A stretch of DNA of 64,000 nt from Dechloromonas sp. (GTDB taxonomy: Bacteria > Pseudomonadota > Gammaproteobacteria > Burkholderiales > Rhodocyclaceae). The position numbers and the translations under genes are program-made. Shown here in pieces: positions 940 to 52,741 of this stretch. The notes beneath the pieces are model-generated. The model was not told where the DNA came from and did no database searches. It worked only from the letters and a program-made list of their open reading frames with translations. Position 1 is the first letter of the stretch; each line of letters opens with the position of its first letter. Location: positions 987 through 64,986 of the forward strand of contig JAEUOG010000004.1 in the NCBI GenBank assembly GCA_016790815.1. Direction: 5' to 3'.

Positions 940-3201
940 TCAGACGGTGGCTTCTGCTTTTTCTTCCTCGAAATCGAGTTTGATTTTGCCGTCCTTGTCG
1001 AGGTCGACCGTAACACGCCCACCGCTGGACAGCTTGCCAAACAACAACTCGTCGGCCAGCGCTGAGCGGATGGTGTCCTGAATCAAGCGAGCCATCGGAC
1101 GGGCGCCCATGAGCGGATCGAAGCCTTTCTCGGCGAGCAGTTCCTTGACCGCATCGGTGAAATGGGCTTCCACCTTTTTCTCGTGGAGCTGTTCCTCGAG
1201 TTGCATCAGGAACTTGTCGACGACCCGCAAGATGACCTCGTGGTCGAGGGGGGCGAAGGAAATTGTCGAATCGAGTCGATTCCGGAACTCCGGGGTAAAC
1301 AGACGCTTGATTTCAACCATCTCGTCGCCGGTCTGACGCGAATTGGTGAATCCCATGTTCGACTTCTGCAGATCGGCAGCGCCAGCGTTCGTGGTCATGA
1401 TGATCACCACGTTGCGGAAATCCGACTTGCGCCCGTTGTTGTCGGTCAGCGTGCCGTGGTCCATGACCTGCAGCAGGATGTTGAAGATATCCGGATGAGC
1501 CTTCTCGATTTCGTCGAGAAGCAGCACGCAATACGGCTTCTTGGTTACCGCCTCGGTGAGCAGGCCGCCCTGTTCGAAGCCGACATAACCCGGTGGCGCG
1601 CCGATAAGGCGGGACACCGCGTGGCGTTCCATGTACTCGCTCATGTCGAAGCGGAGCAATTCAACGCCCAGGCAGTAGGCCAGTTGCTTGGCTACTTCCG
1701 TCTTGCCGACGCCAGTCGGGCCACTGAACAGGAATGAGCCGATCGGCTTGCCGGGGTTGCCTAGCCCCGAACGGGCCATCTTGATGGCCTTGGCCAATGC
1801 ATCGATGGCTTTGTCCTGGCCGAAGACGACAGCCTTGAGGTCGCGATCGAGATTTTTCAGTGCGCCGCGGTCGTCAAGCGTGACATGCTGCGACGGAATG
1901 CGGGCGATCTTGGCAACGATCTCCTCGATATCCGTTTTGTTGATGACTTTTTTCTGCTTCGATTTCGGCAGGATACGCTGCGCTGCACCAGCCTCATCGA
2001 TAACATCAATGGCCTTGTCAGGCAGGTGGCGATCAGTGATGTAGCGTGCCGAGAGTTCGGCAGCCGACGAAATCGCCGTGGCGGAATATTTGATGCCGTG
2101 ATGGGCCTCGAAACGCGCTTTCAGGCCCTTGAGGATTTCTACCGTTTCGGCGACGGAAGGCTCGGTGACATCGATTTTTTGGAAGCGGCGGGAAAGCGCG
2201 CTGTCCTTCTCAAAAATGCCGCGGAATTCGGTGTAGGTCGTCGCCCCGATGCACTTGAGCTGCCCGGACGACAATGCAGGCTTGAGCAGGTTGGAGGCAT
2301 CGAGCGTTCCGCCGGACGCCGAGCCGGCACCAATCAGGGTGTGGATTTCGTCAATGAACAGGATGGCGTGCGGGTTATCCTGCAACGCCTTGAGGACGCC
2401 TTTCAGGCGCTGCTCGAAGTCGCCACGATACTTGGTGCCGGCCAGCAGGGAACCCATGTCCAGCGAATAGACATTGGCCTTGGCCAGGATTTCCGGTACC
2501 TCGCCTTCGACAACCTTGCGCGCCAGACCTTCGGCGATAGCCGTCTTGCCGACACCGGCTTCGCCAACCAGCAGCGGATTGTTCTTGCGGCGGCGGCAGA
2601 GCGTCTGGATTACGCGTTCCAGTTCCTTGTCGCGACCAATCAGCGGGTCGATCTTGCCCTGCAATGCCAGTGCATTGAGGTTGATCGTGTATTGCTCCAG
2701 CGGCCCGGCTTCGCCCTTTTCGCCGTCGGTTTCAACTTCACCCTCGGGAGCCGCCTTGGCTTGTTGTGGCACCTTGCTGATGCCGTGCGAGATGTAATTC
2801 ACCACGTCCAGGCGTGTCACTCCCTGCTTTTGCAGGAAATAGACGGCATGCGAATCCTTTTCACCGTAGATGGCAACCAGAACGTTGGCACCGTTGACTT
2901 CCTTCTTGCCCGAAGACTGGACGTGCAGGATTGCCCGCTGGATGACGCGCTGAAAACCGAGCGTCGGTTGCGTGTCGATGTCGTCGTCTCCGGACACCGT
3001 TGGTGTGTGCTCGTCGATGAAATTGGTCAGATCCTTGCGCAGGGTGTCGGTCTTGGCGCCACAGGAGCGCAGCGCCTCGGCTGCCGAGGGGTTGTCGATC
3101 AGCGCCAGCAGCAGATGTTCGACAGTAATGAACTCGTGGCGTTTTTGACGCGCCTCGACAAAGGCCATGTGCAGGCTGACTTCGAGTTCCTGGGCAATCA
3201 T
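940..3201 (-). CDS. clpA: ATP-dependent Clp protease ATP-binding subunit ClpA
   Basis: Two Walker A motifs ([16 protein letters not shown]), [11 protein letters not shown], 753 aa; directly downstream of clpS. Confidence 0.98.
980..1013 (+). repeat. Dispersed motif copy inside the clpA 3' end
   Basis: TTGATTTT-GCCGTCC-TTGTC-GAG-GTCGAC-CGTAA. Confidence 0.5.
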
Positions 3202-9415: not shown

Positions 9416-12331
9416 TTATTGGTTACCCAGCTTGGCCAACTGGGGCTTGAGTTGTTCCAGCGTCGCCGTGAAACCGGCTACCCGCTGCTTTTCCTGATCG
9501 ATCACGGCGGCCGGGGCGCGGGCGACGAAGCCTTCGTTGGCGAGCTTGCCCTGGGCAATCGAAATCTGCTTTTCGAGCTTCTCGATTTCCTTGGCGAGGC
9601 GTACGCGTTCGGCGGCAACGTCAATCTCCACCTTGAGCATCAGGCGGGTTTCACCGACCACGGCCACCGGTGCCATGGCATCGGCCGGCATGTCGGAAAC
9701 GATTTGTACCTCGGAGAGCTTACCCAGAGCTTGCAGGATCGCTGCGAACTCGGAAATCTCGGCGCCACCACCGGCCACCAGCAGCGGCATGCGCAGGGCC
9801 GGGGAGACATTCATCTCGCCACGCAGGTTGCGCGTCGCGTAGGCCAGGGCCTTGAGGCGCTCGACCTTGGCTTCAGAAGCCGGGTCGATCTTGTACTCCT
9901 CGGCGCGCGGGTAGGCGGCGAGCATGATCGACTCGTGCGTCTTGCGCCCGGCGATCGGCGCGACGGTCTGCCACAGCTCTTCGGTGATGAACGGAATGAG
10001 CGGGTGGGCCAGGCGCAGCACGGCTTCCAGCGTGCGCACCAAGGTCCGGCGGGCACCGCGCTGCTGGGCATCGTTGCCGGTCTGAATCTCGACCTTGGCA
10101 ATTTCCAGGTACCAGTCACAGAACTCGTCCCAGATGAATTTGTAGATGGCCTGGGCAACGAGGTCGAAACGGTAGTCGGTGAAATGCTGTTCGACTTCCT
10201 TCTCGACGCGCTGCAACTGGCTGACGATCCAGCGGTCGGCGAAGCTGAACTCGAGCGGGGCGGAACCGCCGCAGGCCGGGCCGTTTTGCTGGTGTTCTAG
10301 GGCCAGATCGTGGCCTTCGACGTTCATCAGCACGAAGCGCGTGGCGTTCCACAGCTTGTTGCAGAAATTGCGGTAGCCGTCGCAGCGATTCAGGTCGAAC
10401 TTGATGTCGCGGCCGGGCGAGGCAAGGCTGGCGAAAGTGAAGCGCAGGGCGTCGGTGCCGAAGGAGGCGATGCCTTCCGGGAACTCTCTCTTCGTTTTCT
10501 TGGCGATGCTCTCGGCCTGCTTCGGGTTCATCAGGCCGGTGGTGCGCTTTTCGATCAGCGCGTCGAGGCCGATGCCGTCGATCAGGTCAATCGGGTCGAG
10601 CACGTTGCCTTTGGACTTCGACATCTTCTGGCCTTCGCCGTCGCGGATCAGGCCGTGAACATAAACGTGCTTGAATGGAATCTGGCCGGTGATCTGCTTG
10701 GTCATCATGACCATGCGGGCGACCCAGAAGAAGATGATGTCGAAGCCGGTGACCAGCACGGTCGACGGCAAATATTGCTGCAAAATCGGGTTGGCGGCGT
10801 CAATGGCCTCGTCGCCCGTCCAGTCCAGCGTCGAGAACGGCCACAGGGCGGACGAGAACCATGTGTCGAGGACATCTTCGTCGCGGCTCAGCGGTGAGAT
10901 GCCAAATTGAGTGCAGGCCTCATTAAAATTGCCACTCAAAATCCCCGTAGTTAGAGCCAGTGTCTTGTTTTCTGAAACAGGGGCTGCAGAAAGATACTGG
11001 CGATAGGCCTCTTCTTCGTTGTGAGCGACAAAAATCTGGCCGATATCGCCGTACCAGGCCGGAATCTGGTGGCCCCACCACAGCTGGCGGGAAATACACC
11101 AGTCCTGGATGTTGTTGAGCCACTGGTTGTAGGTATTGACCCAGTTTTCCGGGTAGAACTTGATTTCGCCGGAATGGACGACGTCGAGCGCCTTCTCGGT
11201 GATCGACTTGCCGTCGTCGCCAGGCTTCGACATGGCGACGAACCATTGATCGGTGAGCATCGGTTCGATGAGCACATTGGTCCGGTCGCCGCGCGGCACC
11301 TTGAGCTTGTGCTTGTCGGTCTTTTCGAGGATGCCGAGGGCTTCGAGGTCGGCGACAACGGCCTTGCGGGCGTCGAAGCGGTCGAGGCCACGGTATTTCT
11401 CGGGCGCGTTCTCGTTGATCTTGGCATCCAGCGTCAGGATCGAAATCATCGGCAGGCCGTGGCGCTGGCCAACCGCATAGTCGTTGAAGTCATGGGCCGG
11501 CGTCACCTTGACGCAGCCAGTGCCGAATTCGAGATCGACGTAGGAATCGGCAATGATCGGGATTTCGCGATCGGTCAACGGCAGCTTCACCATCTTGCCG
11601 ATCATGTGCTTGTAGCGCTCGTCTTCCGGATGAACCATCACGGCGGTGTCGCCGAGCATGGTTTCCGGACGGGTCGTCGCCACCACCAGGCTATCCGAGC
11701 CATCGGCCAGCGGATAGCGGATGTGCCACATGAAGCCGTCTTCTTCCTCCTGCACGACTTCGAGGTCGGACACAGCGGTATGCAGCTTCGGGTCCCAGTT
11801 CACCAGGCGCTTGCCGCGGTAGATCAGGCCCTCGTTGAACAGGCGGACGAAGGTTTCGGTGACGACCTTGTTGAGGCCGGCATCCATCGTGAAGCGCTCG
11901 CGCTTCCAGTCCGGGCTGGTGCCCATGCGGCGCATCTGCTTGGTGATGGTGTTGCCGGAGTATTCCTTCCATTCCCAGACCTTTTCCAGGAACTTCTCGC
12001 GGCCGAGGTCGTGGCGGCTGATGCCTTGTGCGTCGAGCTGGCGTTCGACGACGATCTGCGTCGCGATGCCGGCGTGGTCGGTGCCCGGTTGCCACAGCGT
12101 GTTGTGGCCGCGCATCCGGTAGTAGCGGGTCAGGGCGTCCATCAGGGTCTGGTTGAAGCCATGGCCCATGTGCAGCGTGCCGGTCACGTTCGGCGGCGGC
12201 AGCAGGATGCAGAAGTTCTCGTCAGGCGCCTTGCTGCGGTCAACGCCAGCAGCGAAGTAATTCTGGGCTTCCCACTCGGGATACCAGCGGCGTTCAATGT
12301 CGGCGGGTTCGAAGGCTTTGGCGAGTTCCAT
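9416..12331 (-). CDS. valS: Valine--tRNA ligase
   Basis: [31 protein letters not shown]-terminal coiled coil. Confidence 0.99.
10756..10789 (-). repeat. Dispersed motif copy inside valS
   Basis: Reverse complement CCGATTTT-GCAGCAA-TATTT-GCC-GTCGAC-CGTGC. Confidence 0.65.
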
Positions 12332-16347: not shown

Positions 16348-17433
16348 ATGATATTCGAACGTGCCGCCCGGCGCGAATTTGCTCAGGCAGCCGCTGGCAT
16401 AAGTGTTGCCCTGCTGGCGATCCTGGCCTCCATATTGTTGATTCGCCTCCTGAAAGAGGCCGTCGGCGGGCGCATTGTGCCTGAGGCGGTAGCGTCGCTG
16501 CTCGGCTTCGCGTTGTTGAATTTCATGCCGCTCGTCCTGAGTTTGATGCTTTTTGTGTCCATTTTGCTCAGTTTGACGCGCGCATACCGCGATTCGGAGA
16601 TGGTTGTATGGAGCACTTGCGGCCTGCCACTGACAGCCTGGTTGCGGCCAGTGCTCAAGTTTGCGTTGCCGTTCATTCTGGTCATTGCGGTGCTGGCCGG
16701 TTTCCTTTCGCCATGGGCCAACTTGAATACAGCGCAGTATCGCCAGGTTCTGGCGGCGCGCAGCGATGTTTCTCAAGTGTCTCCGGGGGTTTTTCAGGAA
16801 TCCAAGGCGGGGAAACGGGTTTTCTTCGTTGAGGCGCTGGATGAGGGTGAGGCGCTGCTCGGCAATATCTTTGTTGCAAGTTCCCAGGATGGCAAGTTGG
16901 GAGTCGTGGTTTCGAATCAGGGCTATCAGGAATTTGCCGAAAACGGAGACCGCTTCGTCGTTCTGGAAAAAGGGCGTCGCTATGAAGTTGAGCCCGGGTC
17001 ACCCGAGTTTCGGGTGATGGAGTTCGAGCGATATCGGGTCCGCACTGAGGATGCCGAGGCCAAGCCCACGGAGAAGTTGCCAAACAGGTTGTCAATGCCG
17101 GATTTGCTCAACGATGACAGCAACAAGGCGCGCGGTGAATTGCTTTGGCGTATTGGCCTTCCGGTTTCAGCCCTTATCCTGGCGCTGCTGGCCATCCCCC
17201 TTTCTTATGTAAATCCACGCGCCGGGCGCTCGGCGAACATGTTGATAGCCGTACTGATCTACGCAATTTACAGCAACCTGTTGTGGGTTGCCCAAGCATG
17301 GGTGGCGCAGGGCAAGTTGTCCTTCTGGATTGGCGTTTGGGTCATTCACGCCATCATGCTGGTACCGCTGATATTGTTGTTCTATCGGCGCATCGCCGTG
17401 CGCATGCCTTGGCAAGGGAAATCCGGTGTTTAA
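16348..17433 (+). CDS. lptF: LPS export permease LptF
   Basis: YRDSEMVVW motif, divergent from pepA, LptF TM pattern. Confidence 0.93.
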   Translation: MIFERAARREFAQAAAGISVALLAILASILLIRLLKEAVGGRIVPEAVASLLGFALLNFMPLVLSLMLFVSILLSLTRAYRDSEMVVWSTCGLPLTAWLRPVLKFALPFILVIAVLAGFLSPWANLNTAQYRQVLAARSDVSQVSPGVFQESKAGKRVFFVEALDEGEALLGNIFVASSQDGKLGVVVSNQGYQEFAENGDRFVVLEKGRRYEVEPGSPEFRVMEFERYRVRTEDAEAKPTEKLPNRLSMPDLLNDDSNKARGELLWRIGLPVSALILALLAIPLSYVNPRAGRSANMLIAVLIYAIYSNLLWVAQAWVAQGKLSFWIGVWVIHAIMLVPLILLFYRRIAVRMPWQGKSGV

Positions 17434-18511
17434 GCTCAACACGCATCAACGCTACCTGATGCGAGAGGTTCTCGCTGCGGTGCTGTTGGTCTTGTTGGCA
17501 TTTTTGGCCCTGTTCAGCTTTTTCAATTTTGTTGACGAATTGCGGAACGTCGGGCGAGCTGACTACACGGCTGGGCGTGCTGCGTTGTTTGTAGCGCTGG
17601 GTTTGCCAGGGTTGGTCTATGAACTGATTCCGATTGCCGCCTTGATCGGAACGTTGTACGCATTGTCGACGCTGGCCAGGCATTCGGAACTCACGGTACT
17701 GCGTGCCTCCGGCCTGGCTACATCCGATTTGCTCATGACCTTGTTTAGGGCAGCAGCGATCCTCGCTTTGCTTACATTTATCTTCGGTGAGGTGCTGGTG
17801 CCGTTCAGCGAGCGGCTTGCACAGGAAATCAAGGCCAAGGCGCTCAGCAAAGTCATCGCCCGCAGCGGCCTGGAAAGCGGGTTGTGGATCAAGGATGGGC
17901 GCAGCTTCATAAATATTCGCAAGGCCAATGCCGATAACACCCTCGAGGGTCTGCGGATCTATCGATTTGCGTCTGATAATGCCCTGGAGTCGGTAACCGA
18001 TGCCAAGCAAGCCACTTTCGTGTTGCCAGACCGGTGGATTCTGAATGGGGTTGTCAGGACTATCCTTGAAGGGGATACCTCGCGCGTCGAATCGATTGAC
18101 TCCATGGAATGGCGTTCTGCGGTCAACCCGGATTTGTTGGCCATTTTGACCGTCGCACCCGAGCGGATGTCGCTATATGGGCTGTTCAACTACACCCGGC
18201 ATCTGGTCGAGAACAAGCAAAAAGCAGAGCGCTACCAGATCGCACTCTGGAAAAAACTCGTCTATCCGCTCACGGCATTGGTCATGGTTGCGCTGGCGCT
18301 TCCCTTCGGCTACTCCCATGATCGCGTCGGCGGGGTTAGTCTGAAGATATTCTCCGGTGTCATGCTGGGCATACTTTTCTATGCCCTGAATGGCCTCTTT
18401 TCGAATCTCGGAGTGATCAATTCCTGGCCGCCGTTTGCCAGTGCGACCGCGCCCGCTGCGCTGTTTTTGGTGGCTGCGATGGGTATGCTCTGGTGGGTTG
18501 AACGGCGTTAA
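17426..18511 (+). CDS. lptG: LPS export permease LptG
   Basis: SELTVLRASG, GLWIKDG; follows lptF. Confidence 0.93.
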   Translation: MFKLNTHQRYLMREVLAAVLLVLLAFLALFSFFNFVDELRNVGRADYTAGRAALFVALGLPGLVYELIPIAALIGTLYALSTLARHSELTVLRASGLATSDLLMTLFRAAAILALLTFIFGEVLVPFSERLAQEIKAKALSKVIARSGLESGLWIKDGRSFINIRKANADNTLEGLRIYRFASDNALESVTDAKQATFVLPDRWILNGVVRTILEGDTSRVESIDSMEWRSAVNPDLLAILTVAPERMSLYGLFNYTRHLVENKQKAERYQIALWKKLVYPLTALVMVALALPFGYSHDRVGGVSLKIFSGVMLGILFYALNGLFSNLGVINSWPPFASATAPAALFLVAAMGMLWWVERR

Positions 18512-22239: not shown

Positions 22240-22734
22240 ATGCAGCGTCACATCATTTCCATCCTGATCGAAAACGAATCAGGTGCGCTTTCCCGCGTGG
22301 CCGGCCTTTTCTCGGCACGTGGCTACAATATCGAATCGCTGACCGTGGCACCGACGGAAGATCCCTCGTTGTCCCGGATGACCATCCTGACCTCTGGCTC
22401 CGACGAGGTGCTTGAACAGATCACGAAACAGCTCAACAAGCTGGTAGACGTGGTCAAGGTGGTCGATCTTTCCGAGGCTGCTCATGTCGAGCGCGAACTG
22501 ATGCTGATCAAGGTTCGTGCTACTGGCAAGGACCGTGAGGAGATGAAGCGCATGGCCGATATTTTCCGTGGCCGTATCATCGACGTCACGGAATCGACCT
22601 TCGTTATCGAGTTGACCGGAGCAAGCGCCAAGCTGGACTCGTTCATTGCCGCGCTGGACGCCGGCCTGATTCTCGAAACCGTCCGTACCGGCGTCTGTGG
22701 CATCGGTCGTGGCGATCGAATTCTTAAAGTTTAA
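22240..22734 (+). CDS. ilvH: Acetolactate synthase small subunit
   Basis: ACT domain LSRVAGLFSARGYNIESL. Confidence 0.96.
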   Translation: MQRHIISILIENESGALSRVAGLFSARGYNIESLTVAPTEDPSLSRMTILTSGSDEVLEQITKQLNKLVDVVKVVDLSEAAHVERELMLIKVRATGKDREEMKRMADIFRGRIIDVTESTFVIELTGASAKLDSFIAALDAGLILETVRTGVCGIGRGDRILKV

Positions 22735-32672: not shown

Positions 32673-34529
32673 TTATTGTGGGGTGGTCCTGGCTCGTACT
32701 GCACGTACGATGCCGTCCTTGTCGAGGCCAAGTTCGGCCAGCAATTGTCCTTGTTCACCGTGATCGATGAAGCGGTCGGGCAGGCCGAGGCGAAGCACCG
32801 TCACGCTCAGACCGCGTTCGGCCAGCACGCGCTCGATTTCCGAGCCGGCGCCGCCGATCACTGCGTTTTCTTCGACGCTGACGAGCAGCGAATGGTTCCC
32901 GGCCAGTTCGACAATCAGCTCGATATCAAGCGGTTTGACGAAGCGCATGTTGGCGACGGTGGCGTCTAGTTCATCGCCGGCAGCCAATGCAGCCGGCACC
33001 AGGCTGCCGAAGGCGAGCAGTGCAATATCCTTGCCCTGGCGGCGGATTTCGCCCTTACCGACGGGCAGGGTGTCGAGATTTTCGGCCGGAAGCTTGCCGG
33101 TGCCGCCGCCGCGGGGATAGCGCACCATGCTCGGGCAATCCAGCGCGTAGGCGGTGGACAGCATCTGGCGGCATTCGGCCTCGTCGGCCGGGGCCATGAC
33201 GACCATGTTCGGGATGCAGGTGACGAAGGACAGGTCGAAGGTGCCGTGGTGCGTCGGGCCGTCGGCACCGACCAGGCCACCACGGTCAACGGCGAAAACG
33301 ACCGGTAAATTCTGCAGCGCGACGTCGTGCACGAGCTGGTCGTAGCCGCGTTGCAGGAAGGTCGAGTAGATGGCGACGACCGGCTTGAGGCCCTCGCAGG
33401 CGAGGCCGGCGGCGAAGGTGACTGCGTGCTGTTCGGCGATGCCGACATCGAAATAACGGTCGGCATGTTCGGCCGAGAAACGCACCATGCCCGAGCCTTC
33501 ACGCATGGCCGGAGTGACGGCGACGAGGCGCGAATCCGCCTTGGCCATGTCGCACAGCCAGTCGCCGAAAACCTGGGTGTAGGTCAGTTTGGCCGGCCCC
33601 TTGGCGGACTGGATGCCATCGCAGGCGGCGAATTTACCGACGCCGTGGTAGAGGATCGGGTCGTTCTCGGCCAGCTTGTAGCCCTGGCCCTTCTTGGTGA
33701 TGACGTGCAGGAACTTCGGGCCCTTGAGTTTCTTGAGGTTTTCCAGCGTCGGGATCAGGGCGTCGAGGTCGTGGCCGTCGATCGGGCCGTAGTAATGGAA
33801 GCCGAATTCCTCGAACAGCGTGCCCGGGGCGATCATGCCCTTGACGTGCTCTTCGGCGCGGCGCGCCAGTTCGAGCAGCGGCGGCGCGAAGCCGAGCATG
33901 TGGCGGCCGGCCTCGCGGGCGACGTTGTAGGTCTTGCTGGAAGTCAGGCGGGTCAGGATGTTGTTCAGCGCGCCGACCGGCGGCGAAATCGACATCTCGT
34001 TGTCGTTGAGGATGACCAGCATGTCGGCATCGGCGACGCCGGCATTGTTCAGCGCCTCGAAGGCCATGCCGGCTGACATCGCGCCGTCGCCGATAATGGC
34101 GATTGACTTGCGGTCCTCGCCCTTGTGTTTGGCGGCCAGTGCCATGCCCAGCGCCGCCGAAATCGAGGTCGACGAATGGCCGACGCCGAAGGTGTCGTAG
34201 GGGCTTTCGCAGCGTTTCGGAAAGCCGGAGACGCCGCCGTGCATGCGCAGGCCGCTCATGCCTTCGCGGCGGCCGGTGAGCACCTTGTGGGCGTAGCACT
34301 GGTGGCCGACGTCCCAGACCAGCCGGTCGTCCGGCGTCTTGAAGACGGCGTGCAGGGCGATGGTCAGCTCGACGGTGCCGAGGTTGGACGACAGATGGCC
34401 GCCGGTTTTCGAGACGGAGTCGATGAGGAAGGCGCGCAGTTCGGTCGCCAGTTGCGGCAACTGCTTGCGGTCCAGTCGGCGCAGATCGGCCGGGCTGTTG
34501 ATGTTTTCGAGCAGGCGGTAGGCGGTCAT
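32673..34529 (-). CDS. dxs: 1-deoxy-D-xylulose-5-phosphate synthase
   Basis: [36 protein letters not shown]. Confidence 0.98.
33280..33313 (-). repeat. Dispersed motif copy inside dxs
   Basis: Reverse complement AGAATTTA-CCGGTCG-TTTTC-GCC-GTTGAC-CGTGG. Confidence 0.65.
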
Positions 34530-35422
34530 CAGAATTGCCGGTGGCAGATGAAATCGGCCAACTGGGTCAGGCGCGTGGCCCGTTCGCCGAAAATGGAGAG
34601 GGCGTCGAGGGCGTCGGTACGCAGTTCGTCGGCGTAGGCGCGGGCGGCTTCGAGGCCGAGCAGGCTGACGTAGGTCGGTTTGTCGGCCGCTTCGTCTTTG
34701 CCGGCCGTCTTGCCCAGCGTGGCGGTACTCGCCGTGCAGTCGAGGATGTCGTCGACGACCTGGAAGAGCAGGCCAGCGCGTTTGGCGAAGCGGTCGAGGT
34801 TGCTGCGCTCATCGGCCGACAGCGGCTGGCCGGCCAGGGCGCCGAGCAGCACGGCTGCGCGGATCAGCGCGCCGGTCTTGAGCGCGTGCATCAGTTCGAG
34901 TTCAGGCTGGTTGAGCGGCTTGCCGACCGAGGCGAGGTCGATGGCCTGGCCACCGGCCATGCCGCGCGAACCGCTGGCGTGGGCGAGCAGGGCAATCATT
35001 TCGAGTTGCTGTTTCGGTTCGCCGATAGGCTGGCTGGCGAGCAGCTCGAAGGCCAGCGTCTGCAGGCTGTCGCCAACGAGCAGCGCGGTTGGTTCGTCGA
35101 ACTCGACGTGGCAGGTCGGCCGGCCGCGGCGCAGAACGTCGTCGTCCATGCACGGCAGATCGTCGTGGACCAGCGAGTAGGCGTGGATCATTTCGACGGC
35201 GCTGGCGACGATGTCCAGCTTGTCCGGCGCGGCGCCAGTCAACTGGCCGGCGGCGTGGGCGAGCAGCGGACGGACGCGCTTCCCGCCACCGAGCGTAGCG
35301 TAGCGCATGGCATCGTGCAGGCGCGCCGGGATGCCGTCGCTAGCGGGCAGGAAGCGGGCGAGGGCGGATTCGGCGCGGTCCTGCGTGACGGCCATCCATT
35401 CGGCGAACGGGGTGGCGCTCAC
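34529..35422 (-). CDS. ispA: Farnesyl diphosphate synthase
   Basis: [25 protein letters not shown]. Confidence 0.96.
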
Positions 35423-35658
35423 TGAGCCTCCAGTGTGCTTCGGTCGACGTCCTTGAACTGGCCGTTTTCGAGGATCCGAATCTGTTCTTCGGCGTTGGCG
35501 AGCTGGCCCTGGCAGTGCTTCATCAGTTCCATGCCGCGCTTGTAGGCGGCGATGGAGGCTTCAAGTTCGAGTTTGCCGCCTTCCATGCTGGAGACGATGT
35601 TTTCAAGCTCGGCGAGAGCCGTCTCGAATTTCATGTCGGCGATGGGCTTTGTGGCCAT
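35419..35658 (-). CDS. xseB: Exonuclease VII small subunit
   Basis: FETALAELENIV..ME.G.L.LE; xseB-ispA-dxs order. Confidence 0.95.
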   Translation of the reverse strand: MATKPIADMKFETALAELENIVSSMEGGKLELEASIAAYKRGMELMKHCQGQLANAEEQIRILENGQFKDVDRSTLEAQ

Positions 35659-35764
35659 GTTTGAGGCGATCAAGGAAACACGCGAAAATACTCCATCAAG
35701 GGGCGCTTGGTCAAATATCGGGGTAAAATATCCACCCCTTTTTAACCCCCGCTGAAGGCTTGGC

Positions 35765-36898
35765 ATGACCGACATGGCGACTCTGTCCCGGTTGGCCCCC
35801 GCAGTTTCCCAACTGCCGGTGGACTGGTATTTCGACGAGAAGATTTTTGAGCTGGAGAAAAAGCTGATCTTCGATGCCGGGTCGGGCTACGTTGGTCACC
35901 AGCTCATGGTGCCGAATGCTGGGGATTATCGTTCGCTGGAGTGGAAGGATCACGGCCAGATTCTGCTCAACGGCGGCGATGTGGGGCCGAATGCCGGCAA
36001 CTGGCAGATGTCGAACGTTTGCCGCCATCGTCAGGCGATCATGTTGCAGGGGTCGGGCACCTTGAACGGGCCGATTGTCTGCCCGATTCACCGCTGGACG
36101 TACAACCAAGGCGGGGAACTGATCGGCGCGCCGCATTTTCCGCAGAATCCCTGTCTGAACCTGAATAAGGCCAAGTTGGAAAGCTGGAACGGCCTGCTTT
36201 TCAAGGGACCGCGTTCGGCCAATGCCGACCTGGCCGGCATGAAGGTCGCGCCGGAACTCGATTTCACCGGTTATAAACTCGACCACGTCGAGATGCACGA
36301 GTGCAATTACAACTGGAAGACCTTCATCGAGGTCTATCTCGAGGATTACCACGTTGCGCCTTATCACCCCGGTTTGGGCAATTTCGTCACCTGCGACGAC
36401 CTGACCTGGCAGTTCGGCGACTGGTATTCGGTGCAGCGCGTTGGTGTTACCTCGCTGCAGAAATCTGGCTCCAAGGCCTATGAGCGCTGGCAGAAGGCTG
36501 TTCTCGACATTTATGGCGCTGAAGGCAAAACGCCCGAGCATGGCGCCATCTGGCTGACCTACTTCCCGAACATCATGGTCGAGTGGTATCCGCACGTGCT
36601 GGTCGTATCGACGCTGATTCCGCAGGGTGTAAACAAGACGCTCAATGTCGTCGAGTTTTACTATCCGGAGGATATCGTCGATTTCGAGCGTGATTTCATC
36701 GAAGCCGAACGCGCCGCCTACATGGAAACGGCGATCGAGGACGACGATATCGGCGAGCGCATGGACCGTGGCCGCTACGCGCTGATGAAGGAAGGGCGCA
36801 ACGAGGTCGGGCCGTATCAAAGCCCGATGGAAGACGGCATGCAGCACTTCCACGAGTTCTATCGGCGGATCATGCAGTCCGCCATCGAGACGCGCTGA
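35765..36898 (+). CDS. Rieske oxygenase alpha subunit; probable putrescine 2-hydroxylase
   Basis: CRH..CPIH Rieske motif, EDYHV..YH iron motif; divergent from xseB. Function inferred from recalled betaproteobacterial homologues. Confidence 0.75.
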   Translation: MTDMATLSRLAPAVSQLPVDWYFDEKIFELEKKLIFDAGSGYVGHQLMVPNAGDYRSLEWKDHGQILLNGGDVGPNAGNWQMSNVCRHRQAIMLQGSGTLNGPIVCPIHRWTYNQGGELIGAPHFPQNPCLNLNKAKLESWNGLLFKGPRSANADLAGMKVAPELDFTGYKLDHVEMHECNYNWKTFIEVYLEDYHVAPYHPGLGNFVTCDDLTWQFGDWYSVQRVGVTSLQKSGSKAYERWQKAVLDIYGAEGKTPEHGAIWLTYFPNIMVEWYPHVLVVSTLIPQGVNKTLNVVEFYYPEDIVDFERDFIEAERAAYMETAIEDDDIGERMDRGRYALMKEGRNEVGPYQSPMEDGMQHFHEFYRRIMQSAIETR

Positions 36899-36951: not shown

Positions 36952-36987
36952 GGCGGCGGGGTAAAATCCGCCGCCTTTGTCATTTTT
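36952..36987 (+). terminator. Hairpin after the Rieske gene
   Basis: GGCGGCGG-8nt-CCGCCGCC followed by TTTGTCATTTTT. Confidence 0.5.
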
Positions 36988-37003
36988 CGAGCCCTACCGC
37001 CTG

Positions 37004-37855
37004 ATGCAATCCCTGTGGATGATCGCCGCCAGTTTTCTCTTCGCCTGCATGGGCGTCTGCGTCAAGTTTGCCGCGCAGAGCCATTCGGCCGTGGAGATCA
37101 CCTTTTACCGCAGCTTCATCTCGCTGATCCTGATGTTCGGGCTGGTTCGCCTTAACAGCGTATCGCTGGCGACGGTCCATTGGCGCTGGCAGATTACGCG
37201 CGGCACGGTTGGCTTCATTGCGCTGTTTTCGTATTTTTACGCCATCACGCTGCTGCCGCTGGCCACTGCCGTGACGCTCAATTACACCTCAGCCATCTTC
37301 TTGGCCCTCTACCTCGGTTTCGCCGGCATGCAGCTGCGTAAGGGCATTATGGGCGCCCTTGTTCTCGGCCTCGTCGGTGTCGTGCTGCTGCTCAAGCCGA
37401 CCATGAACGCCGATCAGCTGGTCGGCGGTCTGATCGGTCTCGGTTCAGGCATCATGGCCGGCATGGCCTATTTCAGCGTGCGCGAACTCGGCGCGCGCGG
37501 CGAGCCGGAAATGCGCACCGTATTCTATTTCTCGCTGGTCTCGTCGGTCGGCGCCGGTGCCTGGCTGCTGTTCAGCGACATTCATGCGGTCGACCTGAAA
37601 AGTGGCCTGCTTCTGCTCGGCGTCGCCTGCTTCGCCACGGTTGCCCAGCTGGCCATGACCCGCGCCTACACGCGCGGCAAAACGCTGATGTCCGCGGCGC
37701 TGGCCTACAGCACGGTGATCTTTTCCAGCCTGTTCGGCATGGCCTTCTGGGGCGAGGTGCTTGATGCTTCGGCGTGGGCAGCGATTGGCCTGATTATCCT
37801 GTCAGGCATCGCAGCCACGCACTTTTCCCGCGCCAGCCCGGTGGAACAGGATTAA
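37004..37855 (+). CDS. DMT/EamA family transporter
   Basis: About 10 TM helices in two EamA repeats, QLAMTRAY. Confidence 0.88.
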   Translation: MQSLWMIAASFLFACMGVCVKFAAQSHSAVEITFYRSFISLILMFGLVRLNSVSLATVHWRWQITRGTVGFIALFSYFYAITLLPLATAVTLNYTSAIFLALYLGFAGMQLRKGIMGALVLGLVGVVLLLKPTMNADQLVGGLIGLGSGIMAGMAYFSVRELGARGEPEMRTVFYFSLVSSVGAGAWLLFSDIHAVDLKSGLLLLGVACFATVAQLAMTRAYTRGKTLMSAALAYSTVIFSSLFGMAFWGEVLDASAWAAIGLIILSGIAATHFSRASPVEQD

Positions 37856-39332: not shown

Positions 39333-40379
39333 CTAGGATTCCAGGCGGGCCAGCGCCCATGCCACATGCTCGCGCACCAGTGCGGACGGGTGATCCAGCT
39401 TCATTTTCAGCGTATTTTTCCCGTCGACCGTGGAAGGCCCGTTACCCAGTGCTACGGCAATATTCCGTAGCCATCGTTCATGCCCGATGCGCCGGATCGG
39501 GTTGCCGGCGAGTCGTTGGTCAAACTCTCTTTCTGTCCAGGCAAAGAGCTCGATCAGCGTCGCTGTATCCAGCCCGTGGCGCGGCGAAAATTCGGGGTCG
39601 CCGATCTGCGCGAAGCGGTTCCATGGGCAACACAACTGGCAGTCGTCGCAACCGTAAATCCGGTTGCCGATCAGCGGGCGGAATTCCTCGGGAATCGGGC
39701 CGGCCAGTTCGATGGTCAAGTAGGAAATGCAGCGCCGGGCATCGACTTTGTAGGGGGCGACAATGGCGCCGGTTGGGCAGGCCTCAAGGCAGGCGGTGCA
39801 GGTGCCGCAGTGCTCCTCGATGGGTTCGTCGGGCGGCAACGGCAGGTCGGTGTAGATGTCGCCGATAAAGCGCCAGGAACCTTCTTTGGAAAGCAGCAGC
39901 GTATGCTTGCCACGCCAGCCGAGGCCAGCCTGACGGGCGAATTCGACCTCCATGACCGGTGCAGAATCGGAAAAAACCCGGTAGCCAAACGGGCCGGTGA
40001 ATTCGCTTATGGCGTCAGCCAGTTTTTGCAGTCGGGTACGGATCAGCTTGTGGTAGTCGCGCCCTTGGGCGTAGCGTGAAATCGCCGCTTGCTCGGGCTG
40101 TTCGGCTGTTCTGGTGTGCGGCAGGTAGTCGATCGCAACGCTGATGACGGTGATCGTTCCCGGATGCAGTTGCTGCGGGTCGGCACGCAATTCGGCGTGA
40201 CGGGCCATATAATCCATCTCGCCGTGGCAGCCCGCCGCCAGCCATTCCCGCATTTTTTCAACAGCGGGGCCGGGTTCGGCGCGCGCCACACCTACGGCAG
40301 CAAAGCCGAGTTTCTTGCCAGCCTCGCGGATTTTTTCCTTGAGCGCCGCGTAATCCACCGTGGAGTCCTGATCGTGCAT
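39333..40379 (-). CDS. queG: Epoxyqueuosine reductase
   Basis: GRDYH, DSAPVME, CGTCTACLEACPTGA, CISYLTIE, GCDDCQLCCPWN. Confidence 0.96.
   Translation of the reverse strand: MHDQDSTVDYAALKEKIREAGKKLGFAAVGVARAEPGPAVEKMREWLAAGCHGEMDYMARHAELRADPQQLHPGTITVISVAIDYLPHTRTAEQPEQAAISRYAQGRDYHKLIRTRLQKLADAISEFTGPFGYRVFSDSAPVMEVEFARQAGLGWRGKHTLLLSKEGSWRFIGDIYTDLPLPPDEPIEEHCGTCTACLEACPTGAIVAPYKVDARRCISYLTIELAGPIPEEFRPLIGNRIYGCDDCQLCCPWNRFAQIGDPEFSPRHGLDTATLIELFAWTEREFDQRLAGNPIRRIGHERWLRNIAVALGNGPSTVDGKNTLKMKLDHPSALVREHVAWALARLES
39400..39433 (+). repeat. Dispersed 34-bp motif, strong copy inside the queG 3' end
   Basis: TTCATTTT-CAGCGTA-TTTTT-CCC-GTCGAC-CGTGG. Confidence 0.85.
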
Positions 40380-40889
40380 AGCCCCGATGTTACCGCCGTT
40401 TTCGAATTGCCCGATGAGGCGGCGACTCAGCACTTTGGCGAAATGCTGGCGCCGCTGCTGCAGCCGGGGCTGGTCATTTTCCTCGAAGGCGACCTCGGGG
40501 CGGGCAAAACCACACTTTCCCGAGCCATGATTCGCGCCCTTGGCCACACCGGCCCGGTCAAGAGTCCGACCTATTCACTGGTTGAAGTTTACGTAATTTC
40601 GAGCTTATACTTATATCACTTTGATTTTTATCGTTTCGAGTACCCTGAGGAGTTTCTCGATGCGGGCTTTGATGAATACTTTAATGACACTGCGATCTGT
40701 CTGGTCGAATGGCCGGAAAGGGCTGCTGGCTGCGTTCCGGCGCCAGACCTGCGGTTGCGTATTCATCATGCAGGTGTCGGGCGTGTCCTCGAAGCCGTGG
40801 CAGATTCACCGAAAGGGCAGGCATGTCTAAACACGCTCATCCCAGCCATGGCCGCCGCCAACTCCTCCGCTACGCCGGCGCCTCGCTGA
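40374..40889 (+). CDS. tsaE: tRNA t6A biosynthesis ATPase TsaE
   Basis: LEGDLGAGKTT, VKSPTYSLVE, HFDFYR, VEWPE; GTG start inferred. Confidence 0.95.
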   Translation: MHSPDVTAVFELPDEAATQHFGEMLAPLLQPGLVIFLEGDLGAGKTTLSRAMIRALGHTGPVKSPTYSLVEVYVISSLYLYHFDFYRFEYPEEFLDAGFDEYFNDTAICLVEWPERAAGCVPAPDLRLRIHHAGVGRVLEAVADSPKGQACLNTLIPAMAAANSSATPAPR

Positions 40890-44296: not shown

Positions 44297-47095
44297 ATGG
44301 CTGATTACAAAGACACCCTGAACCTGCCGGATACGGCTTTCCCGATGCGCGGCGACCTGCCCATGCGCGAGCCGCAGTGGGTCGCCCAATGGCAGGAGAA
44401 AAAACTCTACCAGCGCATCCGCGAGGTTTGTGCCGGACGTCCGCGTTTCGTCCTGCACGATGGCCCTCCCTACGCGAATGGCGATATTCATATCGGCCAT
44501 GCGGTCAACAAGGTGTTGAAGGACATCATCGTCCGCACGAAAACGCTGAGCGGTTTTGATGCCCCTTACGTGCCGGGATGGGACTGCCATGGCCTGCCCA
44601 TCGAGCACCAGATCGAGAAGCAGCATGGCAAGAACATTCCCGCCGACAAGGTGCGTGAATTGTCGCGCGCCTATGCGGCCGAGCAGGTCGAGCGTCAGAA
44701 GAAGGACTTCATCCGTCTTGGCGTGCTGGGCGACTGGGGCAATCCTTACCTGACCATGAATTTTGCTGCCGAGGCCGGCGAAATCCGTGCGCTGGGCAAG
44801 ATTCTGGAGCAAGGCTACCTCTATCAGGGCTTGAAGCCGGTCAATTGGTGTCTGGACTGCGGTTCGGCGCTGGCCGAAGCCGAGGTCGAGTACGAAGACA
44901 AGAACTCGCCGGCGATCGATGTGGCTTTCGAAGTGCATGAGAATCACGCTGAAAAGCTGGCCCACGCCTTTGGTCTGACCCATCTGCGTAGCCCCGCTTT
45001 CGCGGTGATCTGGACAACGACCCCGTGGACGCTGCCGGCCAACGAGGCAGTCAGCGTGCATCCCGAGTTGTATTACGACCTTTACGAAACCGCCAAGGGC
45101 TCGCTGATCCTGGTGCATGAACTGGCCGAGGCTTGCCTGCAGCGTTACGGCCTGGAAGCCGAAATCGTCGCTTCCTGCAAAGGTGAGAAGCTTGATCAGA
45201 TCCTGTTGAAACACCCGTTCCAGCAGCGTGACGTGGCGATCATCTGCGGCACGCACGTAACGACCGAGGCCGGTACCGGCCTGGTGCACACCGCGCCGGC
45301 GCATGGCGTGGACGACTACAACATCGGCAAAAAATACGGCCTGCCGGTAAACAACCCGGTTGGCAACGATGGGCGTTTCATCAGCACGACGCCGGCGCTG
45401 TCGGTGGGCGAACTGGCCGGCAAGACGGTCTGGGAAGCCAATCCGCTGGTGCTGCAGGAACTGGAATCCTGCGGTCGACTGCTCAAAAACGAGAAAATCA
45501 AACACAGCTACCCGCACTGCTGGCGCCACAAGACACCGATCATCTTCCGCGCCACGACGCAATGGTTCATCGGCATGGACAACAAGACCAGCGAAGATGC
45601 CTCGACCCTGCGCTGGATCGCCGAACGTGCTGTCGATGAAACGCAGTTTTTTCCGGCCTGGGGGCGCGCCCGCTTGGAAGGCATGATGAAGACCCGCCCC
45701 GACTGGTGCGTTTCGCGCCAGCGCAACTGGGGCGTGCCGATCCCGTTCTTCCTGCACAAGGAAACCGGCAAGCCGCATCCGCGTACCGCCGAGTTGATCG
45801 AGCAGGTGGCTTTGCGCGTCGAGAAGGCCGGCATCGAAGCCTGGTTCAGCCTTGACGCAGCCGAGTTGCTCGGCGCCGAAGCCGAGCAGTACGTCAAGAT
45901 GAAGGATACGCTGGACGTCTGGTTCGATTCCGGGACGACGCATTGGCACGTTATGCGCGGTTCGCATGCCGCCGAGCACACCTATCCCGCTGACCTCTAC
46001 CTCGAAGGCTCCGATCAGCATCGCGGCTGGTTCCAGTCCTCGCTGCTTTCCGGCTGCGCCATCGACGGCCGTGCGCCTTACAAGGCGTTGCTGACCCACG
46101 GTTTCGTGGTTGACGGCAAGGGCCACAAGATGTCGAAGTCCAAAGGCAACGTCATCGCGCCGCAGACGGTTTCCGACAAGATGGGCGCCGACATCCTGCG
46201 CCTATGGACGGCCTCGACCGACTACTCGGGTGAGCTGACCATTTCCGACGAAATTCTCAAGCGCGTGGTCGAAGGCTACCGCCGCATCCGCAACACGCTG
46301 CGCTTCCTGCTCGCCAACGTCTCCGATTTCGATGCCAAGGCCGACATGCTGCCGGTCGGGCAATGGCTGGAAATCGACCGTTACGCGCTGGCCCTGACCC
46401 GCGAGTTGCAGGGCGGTTGCTGCGCCGACTACGACAAATACGAATTTCACCGCGTCGTTCAGGCCCTGCAGACCTTTTGCTCCGAAGATCTTGGCGGCTT
46501 CTACCTCGATATCCTCAAGGATCGTCTATACACGACGGCACCCAAGTCAGTCGCTCGCCGTTCGGCGCAGTCCGCGCTGTGGCACATCACGCAAGCATTC
46601 GTTCGCCTGCTCGCACCCATTACTGCCTTCACTGCTGAAGAGGTCTGGCAGGTGCTGACCGGCAAGGCCGAGGACTCGGTGATGTTCCAGCAATGGCACG
46701 ATCTGCCGGCGCAGGCCGGAGAGGGCGATCTGCTCGCCAAGTGGGCGTTGATCCGTACGGTACGTGCAGACGTGACCAAGGCGCTCGAAGCCCAGCGCGA
46801 AGCCGGCAAGATCGGTTCCGCATTGCAGGCCGCAGTCGAAATCCACTGCGCTGGCGAAAAGTTCGACGCGCTGGCCTCGCTCGGCGACGATTTGAAATTC
46901 GTGCTTATTTGCTCGTCGACCGTAGCAATCAGAGACGAGAACGAGCAAGTCATCGCGACGCCGCTCGAGCACGCCAAATGCGAACGCTGCTGGCACGTCC
47001 GCGACGATGTCGGTGCCCATGCCGAGCATCCCGGGCTGTGCGGTCGTTGTGTGAGCAACCTGCACGGCGCAGGCGAGGCGCGCGCGCATGCCTAA
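44297..47095 (+). CDS. ileS: Isoleucine--tRNA ligase
   Basis: [19 protein letters not shown]-terminal CERCW..CGRC. Confidence 0.99.
45469..45502 (-). repeat. Dispersed motif copy inside ileS
   Basis: Reverse complement TTTGATTT-TCTCGTT-TTTGA-GCA-GTCGAC-CGCAG. Confidence 0.7.
46892..46925 (+). repeat. Dispersed motif copy inside the ileS 3' end
   Basis: TTGAAATT-CGTGCTT-ATTTG-CTC-GTCGAC-CGTAG. Confidence 0.65.
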
Positions 47096-47567
47096 TGTCG
47101 GGCGCTGGTACGCGCTGGCCGGGCTGGTTGTTGTACTCGACCAGCTCAGCAAGTGGCTGGTGCTTGAGAACATCCGCTACGGCGAAACGATCTACGTCGC
47201 ACCGTTCTGGAACTGGGTGCTGGCCTTCAACCCCGGCGCTGCGTTCAGCCTTCTGGCTGACCAGCCAGGTTGGCAGCGCTGGTTTTTTACCGTGCTGGCG
47301 CTCGGCGTTTCCGGCTGGATCGCCTTCATGCTCCGCCAGCATCCCCAGCAAAAGCTGCTCTCGCTGGCCTTGACGCTGATCATGGGTGGTGCGCTGGGCA
47401 ACGTCATCGACCGCGTTCGTTTTGGCGCCGTGGTTGATTTTGTCCAATGGCACGTCGCCGGCTACTACTGGCCGGCTTTCAACGTCGCCGATGCTGCCAT
47501 CACGATCGGCGCCGTTTTGCTCGTTATTGAGCAGTTGACCGCAACCAACAAAAAAGAGAATTCCTGA
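47088..47567 (+). CDS. lspA: Lipoprotein signal peptidase
   Basis: [25 protein letters not shown]. Confidence 0.97.
47511..47544 (+). repeat. Dispersed motif copy inside the lspA 3' end
   Basis: GCCGTTTT-GCTCGTT-ATTGA-GCA-GTTGAC-CGCAA. Confidence 0.55.
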
Positions 47568-48943: not shown

Positions 48944-49327
48944 CTATTTCCAGCATCCCGTTCCAGAGGATGAGGTTTTCGCTCCCAAGTGAGTGATGCT
49001 GAGCGTGCCGCACTTATCGTTTAACTGGTCGCCCTTGGGGGTGGCCTGGATGGTATAGGTTGTGGCTGTTTGGGCACTGAATGCCAATGTATAGAAACCG
49101 GCGATAGATCCGTCGCAAGCTGTGAGCGCAGCATTGGCATAACTCATGTTTGCCGTGTAGTAACGTTCCATGAATTGGCTGCGTTCGATCATGCAACCCT
49201 CGACGCTCGAGCGCCGTGACTGGCGAGTGTGCTCAAGATAGCTGGGATAGGCAATGCTGGTGATGATTCCAATGATGGCGACGACAATCATCAGTTCAAT
49301 AAGCGTGAAACCCTTGGTTTTGTTCAT
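48944..49327 (-). CDS. pilE: Type IV minor pilin PilE (ComP-like fold)
   Basis: GFTLIELMIVV, YPSY, FMERYY, DKCGTLSI...CW. Confidence 0.92.
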   Translation of the reverse strand: MNKTKGFTLIELMIVVAIIGIITSIAYPSYLEHTRQSRRSSVEGCMIERSQFMERYYTANMSYANAALTACDGSIAGFYTLAFSAQTATTYTIQATPKGDQLNDKCGTLSITHLGAKTSSSGTGCWK

Positions 49328-49330
49328 GGC

Positions 49331-52300
49331 TTAGTTCCTTATGATTTCCCGCCAGGAGATGCGTCCTTGTGGAGGAATACCTGTATTGATCTTGCTGCTC
49401 GCGATGGTTTTTCCATCTTTGCTGCCACTGCCGCTAGCGACGATCTGTCCGCTACCGTCGTTGGACGCCAGTACCCCTGCCTGGCTGGTCAGGCCGATGC
49501 CCAGGTTCAGCGAGCCCGCAACACCCGAATAACCGTTGTTGAATACGAAGAACTGCCCGGTCAAACTGGCCCCTGTGAAGGCGTTCAGGGCGTTCAAATA
49601 GCCGCTACCCAGTTCGCAGGGGTCGTTCGCAACAGGAACGATTGAGCTGGCGATCAGTGTCGGTTCGGTAAAACGGTGCAGGGTCGATCCGGTAATGATG
49701 CGTTCGCCCTGCTGGGTACCTGATATTGGAAGTAAATCAAGATACCAGCCTTGTAGATCCTTCATGTCGTTTGCGGTCGACGTGGAGAAGGTCCGAATTT
49801 CCAGGTTGTCAGCGGTCGTTTCTAGCGCAATCGTCCGCTGCTTGAGTGTGCTTCGGTCGCTGGCGATCGATTCATTCGTGCTTGTTGGCGTGGTGATCAG
49901 GCCGTACCAGGTCTGAGTGCTCTTGTCGGTCAGGTCTCCACTGCGGAAGAACGAGCCCGTGCCGAAGAACAGGAAAACCTTTTGATAATTCGGATCAGTG
50001 CTGAGATAGTTTTTGTAAAGTGTGATTGGTGCGGTGATTGGCTGCAAAACAGTACCGCTTTTTGCAATGAACAGGGGTTTTGGGGTAGTTCCCTGTTTTA
50101 TGGCTGATCCCCAGCCGCTGACGGAACCTCCGGTCAGGTCGAACTTCCAGACATTGCCCTTGAGGTCACCTGCATAGACGTAATCAACGAATCCATCGCC
50201 ATTCTCATCCCAGAGGCCAGGAGTGGAGAGTCCGTTATCGGAGCCTACACCGGTGTCGATTTTCTTGATCAACGCTCCGGTCTTCAAATTGAAGATCATG
50301 AGCACGGCTTTCCCGTTGGTGCTGTTGTAACCGTTGCCGACGATAGCAGCCAGGAGGCCATCGGTGCTGCCGTCGTCAAGACGGGCAACCATCGGTTTTC
50401 CGAGCATGTAGCCAAGATCGGCATCAGAGGTCCCGGTATATTCCCAGAGAACATGGCCGGTTCCAAAGGAGGCTGGCGTGGTTATATCGAGGCCAAACAA
50501 GCCACGCGCGCCGCGCCCGAAAGTGGCGACGAGATAGGTCTCATCGAGAAAGGTGGTCGTCTTGCCGGCAATTGCGATGTCGCCATCGACGAAAAATTTG
50601 TGCTCGTAGTTTGCCAGTGTCAGCTGCTTTAGTCCGCCGAGAACAGCACCGGGAATATAGGCGAATGTTTCTACGCCGGTCTCACCGCTGAATGCATGCA
50701 GCATGCCATCGTTGGAGCCAACGTAAACAGTGTCGGTGACCGGATCGTAATTGGGGGACGAGTGCACCAGGTCGCCGAGCAGGCTGCTTCGGTTGCGCAG
50801 GGTGCCGCCGTTTTTCAGCTCATTGCTCTGGTCACCGCGCAGATAGTTGATCTCGTTGGCGCTTAGGCCGATCGCTCCGGCATTGGTGGCAATAAACGAG
50901 GCGCCGGCACCGCTGAGTCTCGTGAATATCTTTCGTGACCCATGCTCCGGAAGTTTCTTCGATGCCTCCCAGGCTGAAGTGGAACTAAGACCACTGCTGC
51001 TAACGCTATATGATTGCAAATCGCCGGACCAGTTGTCCGTGTTGAAGGTGGCGCTGAATACCTTGGACTGTGTGGTCAGACGGGTGCTGTTGGCGACGAC
51101 TGAGGCAGCGGAACTGATCCGTTTGGCAATGTTGTCGAGCACCTTCTTCAGGGAGTCGGCAAACTCCGTAGGGTTCTGGGCGTTGAAAAAGTCGCCGCGG
51201 CTGTTGACTGAGGCATGCAACAAGTCATCTATTTTGCCGGGATTGCTACCCACTGGGTCAGGCCAGGTTACCGTCGCTCCGCTGTCGATAGCCGCGAAGG
51301 CATCGGTAGAATTGACCGAGCCGCTGACCCCGAAGCCGACGCCGAAGGTTGTCATGTGTTGCCAGAATGCCGGATCCCGCAAGGTGAAGGGAACCTTGTT
51401 CTCGATGTCTGTGTTGAGGTCGTTCTTCCAGTAGTGCATCGCGACGTCGGCAAGTGTAGCGCTGTGCCCGTCTGTGAATGGCGACTTGGCCTCATACGTG
51501 TAACTCTTGCTATCGGGGCCGGTAACGGTAGGGCCGCCATTGCCGTCACTGTTCAGAGCGGCATTGCCTGTCGCACCCCACGCGTCGCCTTCCGTCCAGT
51601 AGCCATCTGTCATCAGGATCGTGTAGCTCTGGCGGCAGGCAGGGTAGGTGCCGCCGGTAGCGCCCGGTGTGGTGCTCCAGGGGCCGCGGACATCAGTGCG
51701 GCTATAGTACATGCCAACATCATGGAGCGCGCGACGCAGAGGGGTTCCTGCTGTCGGGATGGGGTGCTCATACAAGTCGGTGAAGAAGTTGCCGCGAGAG
51801 GTGCCGCTGAACAGGCGCACACCGCGTACAACCGTCCGTGTATCCACTTCGTCTATGGTGGTGCTTCCCTTGTTGATGGCACCAAAACCGACGCGAATAC
51901 GGGTTCCCTGAGCCGCGAAGGCGCGGCCGATACCGGCGCGGGCGGTCAGGATGCGGGAACGATAATAAGTGTACCAGTTGGCAAAATTCTGGATTTCCTG
52001 GTCGTAAGTGCAAACTCCATTTGTGCAGTCCGTCCGCGCTGCCCGGCCATGCCCGGAGTAGGTGTTTCCTGTCGTTATCTCGACTCTCAAGTAATTGCCG
52101 AGAACAAACTGCTCTCCGCCGTTATGCCAGAAATAAGTGGCTGGCCAATAAGTCTTGGAGGAGAGAGCGGGGGATATGCAGCCCGTGTTCGAGCCAGTCG
52201 TGCACTCTTCCCAGCGTGCGGTTTCGGTATTTGCAATCGTCAGGTTACGCGAACCGGCAGTTGTTTTTGCGGGATTGTGAAACGCGGCGGTTGGGTTGGC

Positions 52301-52687: not shown

Positions 52688-52741
52688 GACGGAACTCCTG
52701 CTGGATGGCCGTATAGTTTGCTGGCGATACATGGTTGGGGT

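Follow-up and report, generated by a model that had tools for sequence, protein, structure and literature searches.

Genes in this Rhodocyclaceae genome host copies of an abundant 38-bp DNA motif through unusual synonymous codons. Synonymous third positions take the bases of the motif, especially A or T in two tracts lying 12 nt apart, and comparison of motif-bearing genomes directly shows that a force acts on the DNA motif itself. This force keeps about 1000 copies of an asymmetric sequence in the genome, and it is fairly likely, from the analysis below, that the sequence is an uptake signal of the Pasteurellaceae USS type, spread by molecular drive. The original prediction concerned motif sites in dxs, valS and ileS within a window of 64,000 nucleotides (the whole stretch of DNA analysed, C40:987-64986), and held that coding sequences there are bent at synonymous positions.

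The genome comprises 2.54 Mb in 81 contigs (76% complete, 59.8% GC), and its dxs is 96% identical to that of an Azonexus sp. metagenome-assembled genome (Rhodocyclaceae, Betaproteobacteria), the nearest named record. Whole-genome k-mer counts are dominated by a single word family around GTYGACCG, with 1288 copies of the core. A weight matrix, iterated over positions -24 to +13, gives a 38-bp consensus consisting of an A/T tract (A-W-W-T-T) at -20 to -16, six weakly specified nucleotides, a T tract at -8 to -4, ccg, GTYGACCG, YRG and cA; the opposite strand carries TGCYRCGGTCRAC, ccg, an A tract, 6 nt and a further A/T tract. The centres of the AT tracts, at -6 and -18, lie 12 nt from each other. 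At a cut-off of at least 12 bits, the matrix finds 972 sites in the 2.54 Mb, compared with 8 in a reversed-genome control. The perfect 11-mer GTYGACCGYRG occurs 670 times genome-wide (334 forward, 336 reverse), compared with 20 occurrences of its backward-read control and with 23-88 copies of single-mismatch forms per strong position. Beyond the 38 bp, the sequence around motif copies is not conserved. When the variable base is C, the core together with the preceding ccg forms a perfect palindrome, CGGTCGACCG; such cores register on each strand with an offset of 16, which accounts for 47 double hits (e.g. C7:32633-32687). Inverted pairs of separate copies are rare in the genome.

The copies in the window are listed below, with scores at orthologous positions in a motif-bearing relative (G001) or in motif-free species of the same genus (G004, G016, G024) for some of them.

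979..1016, plus strand: copy in gene 940-3201, 29.8 bits
7498..7535, minus strand: copy in gene 7239-8861, 37.0 bits
8862..8899, plus strand: intergenic copy between convergent genes, 42.8 bits
10753..10790, minus strand: valS copy, 19.9 bits; orthologous positions score -8.9 (G004) and -24.6 (G024)
12231..12268, minus strand: second valS copy, 21.0 bits
18114..18151, minus strand: copy in gene 17426-18511, 30.9 bits
22587..22624, plus strand: copy in gene 22240-22734, 22.0 bits
26664..26701, minus strand: copy at a gene edge, 29.5 bits
31760..31797, plus strand: intergenic copy between convergent genes, 37.9 bits
33277..33314, minus strand: dxs copy, 19.1 bits, over an invariant 12-residue peptide; uses AAT, TTA and GTT
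35435..35472, minus strand: copy in gene 35419-35775, 15.8 bits
36902..36939, plus strand: intergenic copy, 44.1 bits, the highest score in the window
37581..37618, minus strand: copy in gene 36977-37855, 16.7 bits
39399..39436, plus strand: copy in gene 39333-40547, 39.1 bits; about -50 in motif-free orthologues, which differ in their amino acids
45466..45503, minus strand: ileS copy antisense to the gene, 27.9 bits, peptide LLKNEKIK; G016 has KQERIQ in G/C-ending codons and scores -27.9
46891..46928, plus strand: ileS copy in sense orientation, 38.4 bits; retained in G001 (38.2), with -22.9 in G016 and -43.4 in G024
47510..47547, plus strand: copy in gene 47088-47567, 22.2 bits
49768..49805, minus strand: copy in the pilY1-like gene, 21.9 bits
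57556..57593, plus strand: copy in gene 56452-57624, 23.2 bits
61078..61115, minus strand: intergenic copy between convergent genes, 35.0 bits
62753..62790, minus strand: copy in gene 62542-62799, 27.6 bits

The identities of dxs, valS and ileS were confirmed by NCBIfam, and the codons originally quoted at the dxs, valS and two ileS sites are all present exactly as given. Taken one by one, these four sites are only moderately unusual. The dxs segment has a GC3 of 0.50, compared with 0.84 for the whole gene, placing it in the lowest 2.5% of 11-codon windows, and the two ileS segments have 0.58 and 0.64, compared with 0.77. The valS segment (0.75, compared with 0.82) owes its oddity to TTG, ATT, CAA and TAT, not to a low GC3.

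Genome-wide, the departure from background is sharp. Our own gene calls comprise 2080 genes (85% coding, GC3 0.73), and sites were picked by the 8-bp core GTYGACCG alone (959 in genes), with the flanks examined only afterwards, thus avoiding circularity. At these sites, third-position GC falls to 0.16-0.46 at -19 to -16 and at -9 to -5, where the amino acids predict 0.66-0.73. Pooled GC3 is 0.32 at -20 to -16, against 0.69 expected from the amino acids (z = -28.9), and 0.42 at -9 to -5, against 0.71 (z = -27.1), and it matches the expectation outside -25 to +14. Three control 8-mers of similar composition give no GC3 dip (z from -0.4 to +2.0). A CAI-like score of the flank codons is also lowered (0.588, with 0.668 expected). 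The main switches at motif sites are to AAA, ATT, TTT, AAT and CAA, which are A/T-ending minor codons, and to TTG; AAA makes up 83% of Lys codons at motif codons, compared with 31% genome-wide, a purely descriptive figure given that these sites were ascertained by the matrix. The predicted switch to A/T-rich or rare codons is thus upheld for A/T-ending minor codons, but the word rare was too strong, since strictly rare codons show only a modest rise in the flank (14.0%, with 11.1% expected).

The contribution of synonymous choice can be separated from that of the peptides. Shuffling synonymous codons within genes, with proteins and per-gene usage kept, reduces the 11-mer from 434 to 38 +/- 6 copies, and shuffling codon order reduces it to 18 +/- 4, indicating a roughly tenfold excess from synonymous choice and about twofold more from peptides. 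At motif codons, N, K and F are enriched 1.4-1.7 fold; copies lie mostly in tolerant frames and protein segments, with some amino acids shifted to K, N and F. Bending at synonymous sites therefore describes the main effect, as GC3 and shuffling show, but not the whole of it, since amino acids are affected too. The codon typicality of a gene has no relation to its motif density, so that avoidance of highly expressed genes could not be shown.

The amino acid enrichment, together with a strong frame bias, is what would be expected if selection acted at the protein or RNA level, on a favoured peptide or an mRNA element, or if local composition, and not a DNA signal, were responsible. This is very improbable, because the motif uses all six reading frames (the frame yielding TGA is almost unused) and both orientations to transcription, 270 genic copies having the orientation of the gene and 373 the opposite one, and because the best copies lie between genes. 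The signal is, moreover, strongest at synonymous positions given the amino acids, and is destroyed by synonymous shuffling.

The genus contains both motif-bearing and motif-free species, so that the same codons can be compared directly between them. Of 24 species sampled, 13 have the 11-mer in abundance (300-1000 copies), 8 have it at background and 3 slightly above; genome-wide counts of the motif served to define the motif-rich and motif-free groups, whose related genomes are non-independent observations. The peptide at the dxs site hardly varies across 21 relatives, and there AAT TTA is found in this genome and in 8 of the 13 motif-rich relatives, but in none of the 7 motif-free ones, TTA being only 1% of Leu codons in the genome. 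The seven motif-free species encode the same residues by AAC, CTG and GAC CGC/CGT at the N, L and D-R positions and use mostly G/C-ending codons elsewhere, with V or F varying at one conservative position. The expectation that motif-free relatives would use other codons is thereby confirmed, these being ordinary G/C-ending ones.

The contrast extends to the whole syntenic region, in which 58-72 kb of motif-free G016, G004 and G024 contain 1-2 sites, compared with 21-27 in G001, G017 and this genome, and positions orthologous to the genic sites of the window score -13 to -25 bits in motif-free genomes. A larger sample of G016 (872 kb, 14 sites) provided 311 orthologue pairs, including 106 genic sites of this genome. 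Of these, 103 have collinear codon alignments to the motif-free orthologues, differing by substitutions and without insertions; the mean score is -16.5 bits in G016 and +26.6 here, with 4 of the 103 orthologous positions reaching 12 bits and 99 lacking the motif. These alignments bear on the idea that the copies are small mobile or inserted elements of the MITE or REP kind that landed in genes, which would suit a dispersed, multi-copy sequence with high-scoring intergenic copies. Since genic copies lie in collinear codon alignments, often within conserved peptides (as in dxs across 21 relatives), since nothing is conserved past 38 bp, and since point substitutions separate copies from motif-free orthologues, an origin by insertion has very little probability.

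Where the amino acid is the same, 55% of codons at motif sites differ synonymously from those of G016, compared with a background of 41%, and GC3 at motif sites is 0.63 here and 0.76 in G016 (backgrounds 0.73 and 0.77). Amino acid identity to the G016 orthologue is 0.66 at motif codons and 0.84 elsewhere. Identity at these positions is also lowered when two motif-free genomes are compared with each other (0.57-0.78, compared with 0.78-0.88, from only 76-128 codons), so that much of the identity deficit reflects placement in variable protein segments; an additional loss of amino acids on the motif-bearing lineage is suggestive.

Two motif bearers, this genome (G000) and G001, were compared over 165 gene pairs, and both retain the motif at 49 of 57 genic sites. 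On informative motif columns, 14.4% of synonymous third positions have changed, against a background of 31.3% (z = -6.8), and on uninformative motif columns 24.1%. Such constraint on synonymous positions shows the force on the DNA motif to be still at work. The original prediction had attributed the codon pattern to selection or molecular drive on the motif itself, by comparison with USS/DUS; a DNA-level force is substantiated by this constraint, and the identity of the motif as an uptake signal is drawn by analogy. Under this reading, competent cells would preferentially take up motif-bearing fragments and recombine them in, mutations improving a motif copy would spread by molecular drive, and selection on protein and translation would limit where and how well copies form, with the coding sequence yielding where a copy lies in a gene.

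A tree built from dxs alone intermingles motif-rich and motif-poor species of the genus, which suggests repeated loss or gain of the motif, within the limits set by the use of one gene, possible recombination and metagenome-assembled genome quality. In G016, G004 and G024, a search of 58-72 kb per genome for another over-represented word gave no obvious dialect. Words such as CCATACCGGACAT occur 5-6 times in 72 kb of motif-free G016 (syntenic region, L103-L106), and may be a local repeat.

The motif is denser between genes (0.85 per kb) than within them (0.30 per kb), and its median score is higher there (38 bits, compared with 27). Density is highest between convergent genes (1.51 per kb), and gene 3' ends are enriched in the motif. 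Counts in the two orientations to local GC skew are 455 and 447, giving no strand bias, and copies are spaced more evenly than chance would give (CV 0.78). At C35:7491-28166 lies the longest interval without the motif (20.7 kb, 51% GC), which has atypical codon usage and only four called genes and was probably acquired recently. Frames, orientation, intergenic density, skew, spacing and the excess of perfect cores fit USS/DUS, and on this evidence three candidates were rejected: a signal in peptide or RNA, a polar word of the Chi or KOPS type, and an inserted element.

The GC3, shuffling, orthologue and constraint results prove a DNA-level force only, and not its nature. The motif could instead have no part in uptake, being read genome-wide by something other than an uptake receptor and kept by ordinary selection, by gene conversion or by biased repair. 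Candidates include a nucleoid- or chromosome-organising protein, a recombination or repair signal and a HIP1-like word, any of which would bend codons alike, and the partly palindromic core (CGGTCGACCG in the C variant) would suit a dimeric DNA-binding protein. We regard such a reader as rather unlikely. The motif shows no replication-strand polarity, unlike Chi or KOPS, and its roughly 1000 evenly spread copies far exceed the number of organiser sites; parS and matS sites are far fewer. Furthermore, its three-part layout, 12-nt phased AT tracts and GCGGTC core match USS specifically, and its lineage-specific dialects and enrichment at gene 3' ends also speak against a reader of this kind.

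Distortion of codons and peptides by uptake sequences is established in Haemophilus, Actinobacillus and Neisseria. In the Pasteurellaceae USS, a core containing GCGGT precedes two AT-rich segments that are separated by 12 positions (Redfield et al. 2006, PMC1626085). The effects of USS and DUS on coding sequence are known, USS being placed where the protein is poorly conserved (Findlay and Redfield 2009, PMC2817400). Like the USS, the present motif has a core of about 9-13 bp with two AT-rich segments on one side, centred 12 nt apart. It likewise occurs in hundreds to thousands of copies, without orientation bias and over-represented between genes, and shares with the USS an origin by point mutation, a frame bias, placement in poorly conserved protein segments and dialects of subclades (PMC1626085, PMC2817400). 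Read on the USS-style strand, its core is TGCYRCGGTCRAC, in which the leading-A position is not conserved as A; the Hin-type AAGTGCGGT, Apl-type ACAAGCGGT(C) and ancestral ANNNGCGGT USS share only the letters GCGGT(C) with it. Unlike the USS, the motif resides in a betaproteobacterial host (Rhodocyclaceae) of 60% GC, at a lower density of about 1 per 2.6 kb. At this GC content, its AT tracts oppose codon preference, in contrast to H. influenzae, where the favoured USS frames use preferred codons.

With the DUS of Neisseriaceae, the motif shares a betaproteobacterial host, hyper-abundance, a form that is non-palindromic as a whole, genic as well as intergenic copies, lineage dialects and effects on coding sequence. 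The DUS, however, has a core of the GCCGTCTGAA type, 10-12 bp long and without AT flanks, which the minor pilin ComP recognises, and the core of the motif is unrelated to it; inverted pairs forming terminators are rare in this genome, unlike with the DUS. The cyanobacterial HIP1 is short and palindromic and lacks phased AT tracts. The motif resembles it in massive over-representation maintained inside genes, and differs in being long, asymmetric and three-part. Since hyper-abundant words such as HIP1 exist, abundance and constraint are no proof of uptake.

Among 200 genomes from 87 genera of the family, the motif is enriched only in this genus and one other, a Rhodocyclaceae genus with genomes of about 1.8 Mb and 32-42% GC, one member of which is a human-gut (Hadza) assembly. 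In two members of this gut-derived genus (G228, G109; L170-L181), the form is GTTGACCGTGGAWW behind long A/T tracts. In a third member (G175; L182-L183), of 32% GC, it is TCTCGTGGAAA with the same flank type, at about 1 copy per kb and sometimes in inverted pairs. GTTGACCGTGGAWW and TCTCGTGGAAA are lineage-specific dialects of the motif. No paper on the motif emerged from a literature search, nor any on uptake sequences of Rhodocyclaceae, Azonexus or Dechloromonas, and it is quite possible, if tentative, that Azonexus and the gut-derived genus use a previously undescribed family of uptake signals with USS-like architecture and a GCGGTC core. The three-part architecture and core shared with the USS suggest a shared or convergent mechanism of recognition and kinking.

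Components of a competence system were found in the genome, including ComEC, DprA, two secretins and 13 pilin-like genes, type IV pilins among them. ComEA was not found in this 76%-complete genome and is present in relatives, and the competence regulator TfoX/Sxy is absent from all 25 genomes searched. Those competence genes that were found occur almost universally, and motif-free species of the genus have them to the same extent; the presence of ComEC does not separate motif-rich from motif-free genomes. A receptor search by one pilin profile gave no candidate and no ComP-like receptor. A 162-aa pilin on C44 matches through its conserved N-terminus only, in motif-rich and motif-free genomes, and is thus uninformative. 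That competence genes fail to distinguish the two groups, and that the pilin-profile search gave no receptor, favours a DNA reader other than an uptake receptor. A literature search found no report of competence in Azonexus or Dechloromonas. For a USS-type receptor, the interleaving of motif-rich and motif-free species in one genus means that phylogenetic profiling could find it.

What is new is a clear case of such bending in an environmental betaproteobacterium of 60% GC, in which AT tracts oppose the codon bias and the coding cost is directly visible. Also new is the natural experiment provided by species of one genus with and without the motif, which can be compared site by site. If the motif is an uptake signal, sequence-specific DNA uptake would extend past the two classical families to abundant wastewater and gut bacteria, and a route to the receptor would be opened. 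The genus Azonexus includes wastewater polyphosphate accumulators. Such motifs bias analyses of codon usage, dN/dS and horizontal transfer in these genomes.

Positions 48944-55840 of the window contain a minor-pilin cassette (fimU-like, pilV/W/X, pilY1-like and pilE) with a single weak motif copy. The cassette is about 30-31% identical or unmatched in all five compared genomes, including motif-bearing G001, where the flanking genes are 85-100% identical, so that the cassette looks swapped. Since G001 shares the motif and yet has no closer counterpart of the fimU-pilVWX-pilY1-pilE cassette, the cassette is unlikely to be the reader of the motif. A gene encoding 513 aa (12394-13935) is located between valS and the holC-side genes; of the five syntenic regions compared, only that of G001 contains an orthologue.
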